From Escherichia coli (GTDB taxonomy: Bacteria; Pseudomonadota; Gammaproteobacteria; Enterobacterales; Enterobacteriaceae), in NCBI RefSeq assembly GCF_044647545.1, contig NZ_CP172818.1: a DNA stretch of 64,000 bases, one strand, 5' to 3'. Under the pieces are notes generated by a model. The model worked only from the letters and a program-made list of their open reading frames with translations, made no database searches and was not told where the DNA came from. Shown piece after piece: positions 7,796 through 53,785 of this stretch (position 1 is the stretch's first letter; each line of letters begins with the position of its first letter). Made by a program: the position numbers and the translations under genes.

Positions 7796-7958
7796 GAGTC
7801 GCCGCCTGTGAAAAACTTTCGTGTATCGTGACAATTTTTCGTCAGAGTAAATAACAAAATTCGGCAAGCGCGTTTAAAAGGTGAGGTAGATCACTAAGAA
7901 TGGAGAGATATTTTATGTTAAGAAAAAAAACATACATTGTATGAATATAAACGGGAAC

Positions 7959-33132: not shown

Positions 33133-33602
33133 TGAATCCACTGAAAGCCGGTGATATCGCACCGAAATTTAGCTTGCCGGATCAAGACGGAGAACAAGTT
33201 AATTTGACCGACTTCCAGGGACAGCGTGTTCTGGTTTATTTCTACCCGAAAGCCATGACCCCCGGCTGTACCGTACAGGCCTGCGGCTTACGCGATAACA
33301 TGGATGAGTTGAAAAAAGCGGGCGTTGATGTGCTGGGTATCAGCACCGATAAACCCGAAAAACTCTCCCGTTTTGCGGAAAAAGAGCTGCTTAACTTTAC
33401 GCTCCTGTCTGATGAGGACCACCAGGTGTGCGAACAATTCGGCGTCTGGGGTGAAAAGTCCTTCATGGGCAAAACCTACGATGGTATTCATCGCATCAGC
33501 TTCCTGATTGACGCTGATGGCAAAATCGAACATGTTTTTGACGATTTCAAAACCAGCAATCACCACGACGTTGTGCTGAACTGGCTGAAAGAACACGCCT
33601 GA
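33132..33602 (+). CDS. bcp: thiol peroxidase Bcp (peroxiredoxin)
   Basis: 156-aa ORF with peroxidatic motif PKAMTPGCT. Confidence 0.95.
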   Translation: MNPLKAGDIAPKFSLPDQDGEQVNLTDFQGQRVLVYFYPKAMTPGCTVQACGLRDNMDELKKAGVDVLGISTDKPEKLSRFAEKELLNFTLLSDEDHQVCEQFGVWGEKSFMGKTYDGIHRISFLIDADGKIEHVFDDFKTSNHHDVVLNWLKEHA

Positions 33603-33656
33603 TTACTTTGCTCCATTCCGTGCTGGCTGCGCTTGCGGTCAGCACACCTCACTTCT

Positions 33657-33672
33657 CGTGATCAAGATCACA
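33657..33672. promoter_or_regulatory. CRP/FNR-class palindrome upstream of hyf promoter
   Basis: cGTGATCaagaTCACA: perfect GTGA-N6-TCAC core, 14-bp perfect inverted repeat gtgatcaagatcac. Confidence 0.4.
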
Positions 33673-33797
33673 TTCTCGCTTTCCCCTGCGACACGGGTGT
33701 CGAATCCATTTATTGCTGAACGTTAATGACCATCATTTTTGTACCGTTCAGAATCCAGTTAACACATAAATTATTGAATATATTAAATTAATCAGAC

Positions 33798-33814
33798 TGG
33801 CATCCTTTATGCAA
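33798..33814 (+). promoter_or_regulatory. sigma54 (-24/-12) promoter of the hyf operon
   Basis: TGGCATC-N4-ATGCA with GG and GC 12 nt apart; about 40 bp upstream of hyfA ATG, which has an AAGGAG SD. Confidence 0.6.
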
Positions 33815-33854
33815 TATGAAATGCAATGTTTCATATCATTTTCAAGGAGCCGAC

Positions 33855-34472
33855 ATGAACCGCTTTGTGGTGGCCGAACCACTGTGGTGTACAGGATGTA
33901 ATACCTGTCTCGCTGCCTGTTCGGACGTGCATAAAACGCAAGGTTTACAGCAACACCCGCGCCTGGCCCTGGCGAAGACGTCAACACTCACTGCCCCTGT
34001 CGTGTGTCATCACTGTGAGGAAGCCCCTTGCCTGCAGGTCTGCCCGGTCAATGCCATCTCCCAGAGGGACGATGCGATCCAACTCAACGAAAGCCTCTGT
34101 ATTGGCTGCAAGCTTTGCGCCGTGGTCTGCCCATTTGGCGCAATCAGCGCTTCAGGAAGCCGTCCGGTGAATGCCCCTGCGCAATATGTTTTTCAGGCTG
34201 AGGGCTCACTCAAAGACGGCGAAGAAAACGCGCCAACCCAACATGCTTTGCTGCGCTGGGAACCGGGTGTCCAGACCGTCGCGGTGAAATGCGACCTGTG
34301 TGATTTCTTGCCAGAAGGTCCGGCCTGCGTTCGCGCTTGTCCGAATCAGGCGTTACGGCTGATCACCGACGATAGCCTGCAACGTCAGATGAAAGAAAAA
34401 CAGCGCCTTGCCGCAAGCTGGTTTGCCAATGGCGGGGAGGATCCCCTTTCCCTCACTCAGGAGCAACGCTAA
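33855..34472 (+). CDS. hyfA: hydrogenase-4 ferredoxin-type subunit HyfA
   Basis: ATG at 33855 gives 205 aa MNRFVVAEPLWCTGCNTC...; four Cys clusters. Confidence 0.9.
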   Translation: MNRFVVAEPLWCTGCNTCLAACSDVHKTQGLQQHPRLALAKTSTLTAPVVCHHCEEAPCLQVCPVNAISQRDDAIQLNESLCIGCKLCAVVCPFGAISASGSRPVNAPAQYVFQAEGSLKDGEENAPTQHALLRWEPGVQTVAVKCDLCDFLPEGPACVRACPNQALRLITDDSLQRQMKEKQRLAASWFANGGEDPLSLTQEQR

Positions 34473-37464: not shown

Positions 37465-38904
37465 ATGGAAAATCTTGCTCTGACGACGTTATTGCTGCCT
37501 TTTATCGGCGCACTGGTCGTTTCGTTTTCGCCACAACGTCGGGCCGCCGAATGGGGGGTTTTGTTCGCCGCGCTGACCACGCTGTGCATGTTGTCACTGA
37601 TCTCCGCGTTTTATCAGGCCGATAAAGTTGCCGTCACGTTGACGTTGGTCAACGTGGGGGATGTGGCGTTGTTTGGCCTGGTCATTGATCGCGTGAGTAC
37701 GCTGATTCTGTTTGTGGTGGTGTTCCTCGGTTTGCTGGTCACGATCTACTCCACGGGTTATCTGACGGATAAAAATCGCGAACACCTGCATAACGGCACG
37801 AATCGTTATTACGCATTTTTGCTGGTTTTTATCGGCGCGATGGCGGGACTGGTACTCTCCTCGACGCTGCTCGGTCAGTTGTTGTTTTTTGAAATTACGG
37901 GCGGCTGCTCCTGGGCGTTGATCAGTTATTACCAGAGCGATAAAGCGCAGCGTTCAGCACTAAAAGCGTTACTTATCACTCATATCGGTTCGCTGGGGTT
38001 GTATCTTGCCGCCGCCACGCTGTTTTTGCAGACCGGAACGTTTGCGCTTAGCGCGATGAGCGAGTTACACGGCGACGCACGTTATCTGGTTTATGGCGGC
38101 ATCCTGTTTGCCGCGTGGGGGAAATCGGCCCAGCTACCGATGCAAGCGTGGCTACCGGATGCAATGGAAGCGCCAACACCGATCAGCGCCTATCTCCACG
38201 CCGCATCGATGGTGAAAGTGGGCGTTTACATTTTTGCCCGTGCCATTATCGACGGCGGCAATATCCCGCATGTGATTGGCGGCGTTGGCATGGTTATGGC
38301 ACTGGTCACCATTCTTTACGGCTTCCTGATGTATTTGCCACAGCAGGATATGAAGCGGTTGCTGGCCTGGTCGACCATCACTCAACTTGGCTGGATGTTT
38401 TTCGGCTTGTCGCTCTCCATCTTCGGCTCGCGGCTGGCGCTGGAGGGCAGCATCGCCTACATCGTCAACCACGCGTTCGCTAAAAGCCTATTTTTCCTTG
38501 TAGCAGGTGCGCTGAGTTACAGCTGCGGCACGCGCTTGTTGCCGCGTCTGCGTGGCGTATTGCACACCCTGCCGTTGCCAGGCGTGGGTTTCTGCGTAGC
38601 CGCGCTGGCGATTACTGGCGTACCGCCGTTCAACGGCTTCTTCAGTAAATTCCCGCTGTTTGCCGCCGGTTTTTCGTTGTCAGTGGAGTACTGGATCCTG
38701 CTGCCCGCCATGATTCTGCTGATGTTTGAATCGGTCGCCAGTTTCGCCTGGTTTATTCGCTGGTTTGGTCGCGTCGTGCCTGGCAAACCGAGCGAGGCCG
38801 TCGCCGATGCCGCACCGCTGCCAGGATCAATGCGCCTGGTGTTGATTGTACTGATTGTGATGTCGCTGATTTCCAGCGTAATCGCCGCGACCTGGTTGCA
38901 GTAA
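37465..38904 (+). CDS. hyfD: hydrogenase-4 membrane subunit HyfD (antiporter-like)
   Basis: 479-aa polytopic membrane ORF. Confidence 0.93.
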   Translation: MENLALTTLLLPFIGALVVSFSPQRRAAEWGVLFAALTTLCMLSLISAFYQADKVAVTLTLVNVGDVALFGLVIDRVSTLILFVVVFLGLLVTIYSTGYLTDKNREHLHNGTNRYYAFLLVFIGAMAGLVLSSTLLGQLLFFEITGGCSWALISYYQSDKAQRSALKALLITHIGSLGLYLAAATLFLQTGTFALSAMSELHGDARYLVYGGILFAAWGKSAQLPMQAWLPDAMEAPTPISAYLHAASMVKVGVYIFARAIIDGGNIPHVIGGVGMVMALVTILYGFLMYLPQQDMKRLLAWSTITQLGWMFFGLSLSIFGSRLALEGSIAYIVNHAFAKSLFFLVAGALSYSCGTRLLPRLRGVLHTLPLPGVGFCVAALAITGVPPFNGFFSKFPLFAAGFSLSVEYWILLPAMILLMFESVASFAWFIRWFGRVVPGKPSEAVADAAPLPGSMRLVLIVLIVMSLISSVIAATWLQ

Positions 38905-38915
38905 GGAGATGATGA

Positions 38916-39566
38916 ATGACCGGTTCTATGATCGTAAATAATCTGGCGGGACTGATGATGCTGACATCGCTGTTTGTGATTAGCGTCAAAAGCTATCGCC
39001 TGTCATGCGGATTTTACGCCTGCCAGTCGCTGGTGCTGGTGTCTATTTTCGCCACCCTCTCGTGCCTGTTCGTCGCAGAGCAACTGCTGATCTGGTCCGC
39101 CAGCGCCTTTATCACCAAAGTGCTGCTGGTACCGTTAATCATGATTTACGCTGCACGAAATATTCCCCAGAACATCCCGGAAAAAGCGTTATTCGGTCCG
39201 GCTATGATGGCATTGCTCGCGGCATTAATTGTCCTGCTTTGCGCATTTGTCGTTCAGCCCGTGAAGCTACCGATGGCTACCGGGCTGAAACCGGCGCTGG
39301 CGGTGGCGTTAGGTCATTTTCTGCTTGGCCTGCTGTGCATTGTCAGCCAGCGCAATATCCTGCGGCAAATTTTTGGTTACTGCCTGATGGAAAACGGCTC
39401 CCATCTGGTGCTGGCGCTTCTTGCCTGGCGTGCACCGGAACTGGTGGAAATTGGTATCGCTACCGACGCCATCTTCGCCGTCATTGTGATGGTGTTACTG
39501 GCAAGAAAAATATGGCGTACCCACGGCACGCTGGACGTGAACAACTTGACCGCGCTGAAGGGATAA
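38916..39566 (+). CDS. hyfE: hydrogenase-4 membrane subunit HyfE
   Basis: 216-aa membrane ORF. Confidence 0.92.
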
Positions 39567-53612: not shown

Positions 53613-53785
53613 TTATTTTCGTTGACTTTAGTCAAAATGATAACGGTTTGAGATAAAGTTATTTTGTATTCAAATGGTTATGGAAGAAGATTATTCCATC
53701 CGAAAACGATCCTTTGCCCTGGTACAAGTATTCTTTTGCCGCGCGCCTGGGGAAAAGACGTGCAAAAAGGTTGTGTAAAGCAGTC

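Follow-up and report, generated by a model that had tools for sequence, protein, structure and literature searches.

The analyses presented here establish that the palindrome cGTGATCaagaTCACA, at positions 33657–33672 of the window (the whole 64 000-nucleotide stretch that was analysed, a segment of the Escherichia coli chromosome with 100% identity to several sequenced strains), is a known and annotated CRP site upstream of the hyf operon. We consider it very probable that it works as a high-affinity cAMP-CRP site of the hyf control region, positively coupling the sigma54 promoter of hyfA to carbon-source status. Such a site would explain how the largely silent hydrogenase-4 operon is linked to carbon source besides formate and anaerobiosis, a link that is already in the databases. 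The ambiguity between CRP and FNR, which is also found in published FNR prediction tables, is here resolved for CRP, and a conserved 31-bp spacing offers a handle on how CRP helps a sigma54 promoter, a question that has no general answer.

Read directly from the sequence, the 16-mer lies within the 252-bp spacer that separates bcp (stop codon 33600–33602) from hyfA (ATG at 33855). As a feature, the cAMP-CRP site CGTGATCAAGATCACA (33657–33672, no strand assigned) has its centre at 33664.5, which corresponds to −160.5 at the hyf sigma54 promoter. Two readings made in the initial annotation are exact, the GTGA-N6-TCAC core occupying 33658–33671 and the TGAT-N4-ATCA pattern 33659–33670. The description of GTGATCAAGATCAC as a 14-bp perfect inverted repeat does not hold: its reverse complement, GTGATCTTGATCAC, is not identical to it, because 6-bp arms (GTGATC and GATCAC) flank a non-symmetric central AA that is not self-complementary, and the palindrome is missing from the window-wide list of perfect 14-bp palindromes. 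The site had also been placed about 150 bp upstream of the sigma54 promoter; the upstream placement stands and the figure can be made more exact, since with the promoter at 33798–33813 the site centre at 33664.5 is 134.5 bp away from the leading G of the −24 GG (33799) and 160.5 bp away from the start implied by the database position. Two GATC (Dam) sites, 33660–33663 and 33666–33669, lie 6 bp apart within the CRP site. At other CRP sites, bound CRP has been reported to protect Dam sites from methylation, and CRP occupancy could protect the two GATC sequences at hyf in the same way. A literature search on hyfA and GATC gave nothing relevant to Dam protection at this palindrome, and a Dam methylome paper merely lists hyfR as CRP-regulated.

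The bare GTGA-N6-TCAC core occurs four times in the window against 0.82 expected, so that the core on its own is weak evidence, and no enrichment in the window was found for TGTGA-N6-TCACA with one mismatch. The scoring with CRP and FNR weight matrices suggested in the initial annotation was carried out with a CRP matrix derived from the 106 other sites of the ETEC H10407 CRP ChIP-seq table (PMC4287617), the hyfA site being left out, and an FNR matrix derived from the 63 sites that Table S6 of Myers et al. (PMC3688515) gives as ChIP-bound. With the CRP matrix the 16-mer scores 19.04 of 22.11 and takes rank 4 of 106, with a probability per position of 5.6×10⁻⁸ and an expectation of 0.0036 such matches per 64 kb, or 0.26 per 4.64-Mb genome. 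It is the top CRP matrix match in the window, the next (14.28) being almost 5 bits lower; nine of the ten core bases of the CRP consensus TGTGA-N6-TCACA are matched, and the score is within the range of sites bound in vivo. A chance palindrome is ruled out by the CRP matrix expectation (about 0.004 per 64 kb). The second-best CRP matrix match in the window, TGTGATTAGCGTCAAA (38975–38990; score 14.3), lies within the hyf coding region and is absent from the published CRP site lists compared. Elsewhere in the window, TGTGAGCCATGACACA at aegA/narQ (18131–18146; matrix score 12.1) is a CRP ChIP-seq site in ETEC H10407 (PMC4287617), and GGTGAGGTAGATCACT (7880–7895; matrix score 13.8) is a CRP SELEX-chip box between eutS and maeB (PMC3105977).

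According to the initial annotation, CRP and FNR could not be told apart here by sequence, a view that underrates what the sequence shows: the outer base of each half-site is G/C, as is typical of CRP (GTGA...TCAC, not TTGA...TCAA). As a rule, G or C at the outer half-site position directs CRP binding, and T or A directs FNR binding. We regard the question as largely settled in favour of CRP as the ligand, with FNR not the physiological one. That the palindrome might instead be an FNR site or a hybrid CRP/FNR site, at which FNR and CRP compete or alternate in the anaerobic activation of hyf, seems to us very unlikely. Eight of ten bases do match the FNR consensus TTGAT-N4-ATCAA, the outer discriminating bases being G/C rather than T/A, and the 14-mer GTGATCAAGATCAC is among the predicted FNR sites of Myers et al. 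(PMC3688515, Table S6), where its PatSer score of 13.04 exceeds the genome-wide cut-off; moreover, hyfA is one of five ‘silent’ sites in that study with prior EcoCyc evidence of FNR regulation, and overlapping CRP/FNR sites are discussed there at guaB, ptsH and uxaB, with the Salmonella pepT hybrid in the reference list. However, FNR ChIP-seq gave no peak at the predicted hyfA site, where IHF and Fis signals overlap (PMC3688515), and since the cultures were anaerobic on glucose, competition by CRP is an unlikely cause of the missing peak. With the FNR matrix the palindrome reaches 13.75 of 22.09 and rank 54 of 63, at a probability per position of 9.2×10⁻⁶, and 0.59 equal-or-better matches would be expected per 64 kb and about 43 per 4.64-Mb genome. 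Eight predicted FNR sites in the Myers table are of the GTGA-N6-TCAC type, and one of these (ppiA/tsgA) is FNR-bound, a number too small for statistics that nevertheless fits the established outer-base rule; at least four of the eight (ycfQ/bhsA, yibI/mtlA, ppiA/tsgA and hyfA) appear in the ETEC CRP ChIP list. The orthologous sites of Citrobacter and Kosakonia keep TGTGA/TCACA and score strongly for CRP, yet FNR-type half-sites are not kept, their FNR scores (8.7–10.1) lying below that of the weakest bound FNR site (11.94). The hyf site resembles the hybrid sites (pepT; guaB, ptsH and uxaB) in satisfying relaxed versions of both motifs, such that the FNR matrix detects it, but whereas guaB, ptsH and uxaB have an FNR ChIP-seq peak, no FNR occupancy was detected at the hyf site and both its half-sites are of the CRP type.

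The 14-mer GTGATCAAGATCAC has a second genomic copy near tppB (K-12 old coordinate 1710355), which is likewise a ‘silent’ predicted FNR site, and the near-identical CGTGATCAAGATCACG (ETEC 1811426) is a CRP ChIP site inside a gene listed as ETEC-specific. Three FNR-consensus sites found elsewhere in the window are entries of Table S6 in PMC3688515: TTGATATATATCAA (61734–61747, yfgF/yfgG), a perfect palindrome, and TTGACTTTAGTCAA (53622–53635, upp/purM) are both ChIP-bound, and TTGACGTTGGTCAA (37639–37652), inside hyfD, is a predicted FNR site that is silent.

Binding by CRP is documented in vivo as well as in vitro. Table S4 of Shimada et al. (2011; PMC3105977), which is in RegulonDB format with ECK ids, carries the entry ‘hyfABCDEFGHIJR-focB activator −160.5’ with the sequence TCTCGTGATCAAGATCACATTC, and the supposition of the initial annotation that the palindrome is an upstream co-activator site of the sigma54 hyf promoter is thereby borne out. 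In the same study, genomic SELEX-chip placed a CRP peak between bcp and hyfA (Table S3), its box TGTGATCTTGATCACG being the reverse complement of the site, and hyfA is among the RegulonDB CRP targets recovered by SELEX (Table 1). The RegulonDB/EcoCyc CRP site of hyfABCDEFGHIJR-focB in K-12 has the identical 16-mer and 22-mer core, in the same spacer and at the same computed position; the strain of the window differs from K-12 in a few flanking bases, e.g. C/T 12 bp upstream of the site, and the RefSeq K-12 record has no binding-site features annotated in the bcp–hyfA spacer. Further, a high-confidence CRP ChIP-seq peak in ETEC H10407 was assigned to hyfA with the sequence CGTGATCAAGATCACA (Haycocks et al., 2015; PMC4287617). 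Since those cultures were grown aerobically in M9-fructose (PMC4287617), and expression of hyf would not be anticipated there, the peak demonstrates occupancy and not effect. Counted from the site centre at 33664.5, position −160.5 gives 33825 as the start, which leaves 30 bp to the hyfA ATG and agrees with the sigma54 boxes. The hyf start mapped by Skibinski et al. in 2002 reportedly agrees with 33825, and expression of a hyf-lacZ fusion reportedly needs crp/cAMP. The ‘activator’ role of the site is thus a catalogued one, resting on the database entry and on this reported crp/cAMP dependence; a text search found no usable published account of a crp effect on hyf, and we are aware of neither footprinting nor site-directed mutagenesis at the palindrome.

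We also weighed a bound but neutral CRP site, with the crp dependence of hyf arising indirectly, e.g. through formate supply or through expression of hyfR/fhlA. To our knowledge the site has had no mutational test, its occupancy in ETEC was recorded in cultures in which one would not expect hyf expression, and many CRP-occupied sites are without a change in expression, as discussed by Myers et al. (PMC3688515). We nevertheless think such neutrality very unlikely, given how the site is distributed and conserved, both within E. coli and between genera.

Within E. coli, the 16-mer is identical in six divergent strains, in which bases 2 bp upstream and 6–8 bp downstream vary, and the whole spacer is present in 4297 of 5426 complete genomes. 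About 1126 of the 5426 (approximately 21%, e.g. ST131) are missing hyf, bcp being followed there by yfgO on the opposite strand. In these genomes homology to the window stops at about 33650–33654, 3–7 bp before the palindrome (junction at about 33650–33656; loci L049 and L050, 2501–2597). Since the hyf-less strains are without the palindrome, the site travels with hyf and not with bcp; that it is gained and lost together with hyf speaks against a neutral site. It also bears on whether the inverted repeat might be an RNA hairpin, i.e. a terminator or 3′-end structure of the bcp transcript, as its place on the transcribed strand, 55 nt past the bcp stop codon, would allow. We give this reading virtually no credence: hyf-less strains keep bcp and a separate hairpin but not the palindrome, the arms of the repeat are just 6 bp with a 2-nt centre, and its orthologues preserve half-site bases and not base-pairing. 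Folding and a terminator scan likewise reject it, the repeat being unpaired in the minimum-energy fold and no terminator-like site being called. The stable structure (minimum free energy of the entire folded segment −31.5 kcal/mol, z-score −2.9) is a separate hairpin at 33620–33645 on the plus strand, after the bcp stop codon, with an 11-bp stem and a GCUU loop. This hairpin, which has no T-run and was therefore not called by the terminator scan, is likely to be the 3′ end of bcp or to resemble a terminator. The hyf control region has its upstream limit at this hairpin, and a few bases past it the hyf-less E. coli cease to be homologous to the window.

A separate variation concerns the promoter itself. 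In O157:H7 the hyf −24 box has TGACAT in place of TGGCAT (Sakai, locus L051 246–251, equivalent to window positions 33798–33803), and an exact 40-mer with this variant occurs in at least 139 complete genomes, with the CRP site intact. With the conserved GG gone, the hyf sigma54 promoter of O157:H7 would be expected to be crippled.

Between genera, a scan for HyfA with one genome per species returned 45 loci, none of them from Escherichia, the diversity of E. coli itself being taken from the E. coli genome collection. The order gcvR-bcp-hyfA-hyfB is found in only six of the 45 (Citrobacter amalonaticus, three Citrobacter sp. and two Kosakonia), where Bcp is 95–98% identical to that of E. coli and HyfA only 64–72%. 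Our comparison of seven sequences comprises E. coli and these six syntenic loci, the four Citrobacter genomes representing two sequence types and the Kosakonia two species. All six have a strong CRP match at −186.5 to −191.5 from the ATG (E. coli, −190.5), the orthologous sites being TGTGATCGCAATCACA, TGTGACTAATATCACA and TTTGACCGCGATCACA with CRP matrix scores of 18.9, 17.5 and 15.9, respectively; the chance expectation of such matches within ±3 bp is 10⁻⁵ to 5×10⁻⁷. In the alignment most of the spacer has diverged, and the TGA and ATCACA of the CRP site are invariant with the central bases variable. The other blocks conserved within the spacer are CGACAC-N3-TGYCG, TGACCATCAYTTTTGT, YAA-N4-TTGAWW, the sigma54 boxes and the ribosome-binding site. 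From the CRP centre to the centre of CGACAC-N3-TGYCG the distance is 31.0 bp in all seven sequences, though the intervening bases differ, and to the −24 GG it is 132.5–134.5 bp. Positional conservation of this kind is the mark of a protein-binding site that selection has kept in place; half-sites that stay invariant across three genera around a free centre, at a fixed 31 bp from the putative enhancer and amid mostly diverged positions, argue against neutrality and for the functional cAMP-CRP site that we propose. The 31-bp spacing between CRP site and candidate enhancer is new and minor, and should be taken as a lead rather than a finding. In distant hyf operons (Atlantibacter, Morganella, Providencia, Dickeya, Pectobacterium, Serratia and others, none beside bcp) no CRP match above 8.5 was found in the 450 bp upstream of hyfA, and the CRP input to hyf therefore appears to be restricted to the bcp-linked Escherichia/Citrobacter/Kosakonia clade.

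The remaining conserved blocks outline the control region into which the CRP site is set. The palindrome CGACACGGGTGTCG (33689–33702, centre 33695.5, no strand assigned), whose centre is separated from that of the CRP site by exactly 31 bp, occurs just once in the window (0.06 expected) and shares the hexamer TGTCGA/TCGACA with the FhlA-bound hycA–hypA spacer; with its conserved pattern CGACAC-N3-TGYCG, it is a putative HyfR/FhlA enhancer or upstream activating sequence. The hycA–hypA spacer contains no CRP-like site, its best score with the CRP matrix being 4.9. Further downstream, the block TGACCATCATTTTTGT (33727–33742, no strand assigned), which is the same in all seven sequences bar one C/T position, may be a second activator-binding element. 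Within the AT-rich stretch between the presumed enhancer and the promoter lies an IHF-like element, TAAATTATTGAAT (33767–33779, no strand assigned), of the form YAA-N4-TTGAWW; this pattern and its distance of 31–32 bp to the −24 GG are kept in all seven sequences, and the match to the consensus is our own reading. The sigma54 promoter TGGCATCCTTTATGCA (33798–33813, plus strand), with its GG at 33799–33800, its GC at 33811–33812 and a start near 33825, fits the consensus TGGCAY-N5-TTGCW and is conserved in Citrobacter and Kosakonia. It is followed on the same strand by the hyfA ribosome-binding site AAGGAG (33844–33849, from the sequence) and by hyfA itself (33855–34472), the first gene of the hydrogenase-4 operon according to the RefSeq annotation and the list of open reading frames (in frame with the 33816 ORF). 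The layout is that of an enhancer-dependent sigma54 promoter, with −24/−12 boxes, an upstream palindrome to which HyfR/FhlA would bind, and an IHF-like element at fixed distances. In agreement, sigma54-holoenzyme SELEX gave a peak in the bcp/hyfA spacer that reached 92% of the top peak with the holoenzyme alone and was itself the top peak when NtrC was added, and the spacer is enriched in IHF ChIP-chip as well as in Fis ChIP (PMC3688515, Table S6).

A genomic SELEX peak of RpoD holoenzyme is also found in the bcp/hyfA spacer, for which a sigma70 promoter, ATGACC-17-CAGAAT (33726–33754), was proposed. Class I and II CRP-dependent promoters have CRP centred at −41.5, or at −61.5, −71.5, −82.5 or −92.5, from a sigma70 start, and CRP bound far upstream usually works through the alpha C-terminal domain at sigma70 promoters. 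CRP could on this basis act in class I fashion on a sigma70 promoter within the spacer, producing a second, catabolite-controlled transcript into hyfA. We judge this to be highly improbable, considering that a consensus scan of 33500–33950 finds no sigma70-like promoter, that the proposed hexamers match four of six bases each, and that a start near 33761 would put the CRP centre at about −96.5, off the usual positions. Moreover, the proposed −10 is not kept in Citrobacter and Kosakonia, unlike the CRP site and its distances to the presumed enhancer and the sigma54 boxes, and the proposed −35 is overlapped by TGACCATCATTTTTGT, a block whose conservation is like that of a protein-binding site. 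Promoter scan, CRP position and −10 conservation alike give no class I or class II CRP-dependent sigma70 promoter in the spacer.

Returning to cAMP-CRP acting on the sigma54 promoter of hyfA, we suggest that CRP would be bound three helical turns (31 bp) upstream of, and on the same face of the DNA as, the enhancer palindrome occupied by HyfR/FhlA. A CRP-induced bend, or a direct contact, could then stabilize, orient or position the activator oligomer, which would in turn contact sigma54-RNA polymerase across an AT-rich spacer bent by IHF. We infer this step of co-operation between CRP and the activator from the arrangement of the sites. It is possible, though on balance doubtful, that CRP and HyfR/FhlA form a fixed same-face module in which CRP directly assists a sigma54 enhancer-binding protein, either architecturally or by contact; the idea is put forward because the 31 bp are exact in three genera and because a look-alike at fdhF, with CRP occupancy in vivo, has a spacing of 33 bp. 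If true, this would be a general and so far undescribed route to catabolite control of the sigma54 promoters of the formate regulon. We know of no established general mechanism by which CRP activates sigma54 promoters from around −160, and given the IHF and Fis ChIP enrichment in the spacer, anti-repression or architectural roles are inseparable from direct co-activation.

Finally, the hyf control region may be compared with other sigma54 promoters at which CRP has a part. At glnAp2 of E. coli and at rhizobial dctA, CRP is a negative factor. These promoters are like hyf in that CRP, upstream of or near a sigma54 promoter, reportedly modulates enhancer-dependent transcription; they differ in that CRP is inhibitory there, whereas at hyf the site has an activator entry in the databases and is found upstream of the putative enhancer, not between it and the promoter. 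The prpBCDE operon (PrpR) of E. coli and Salmonella shares with hyf a sigma54 promoter, an enhancer-binding activator of its own and a need for cAMP-CRP that leads to catabolite control, but has another activator and a divergent promoter layout; the sigma54/PrpR details are attributed to Lee, Newman and Keasling in 2005. Both prpB and prpR figure among the RegulonDB targets of CRP given in PMC3105977. Within the formate regulon, fdhF (FhlA, sigma54) has a CRP-type palindrome, CGTGATGGCTGTCACG, outside the window (K-12 fdhF upstream region, locus L047 738–753, minus strand of the locus), with the inverted repeat of the FhlA region centred 33 bp downstream of it, as compared with 31 bp at hyf. 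A CRP ChIP-seq peak was recorded at fdhF in ETEC (PMC4287617), and fdhF is absent from the 2011 RegulonDB and SELEX CRP tables (PMC3105977). The fdhF site is weaker than that of hyf, with a matrix score of 13.1 that includes the site itself in the training set, and the parallel arrangement of CRP and activator sites is a lead rather than a finding. From the CRP palindrome to TGGCA the distance is 111.5 bp at fdhF and 133.5 bp at hyf, a difference of 22 bp, or about two turns of the helix.
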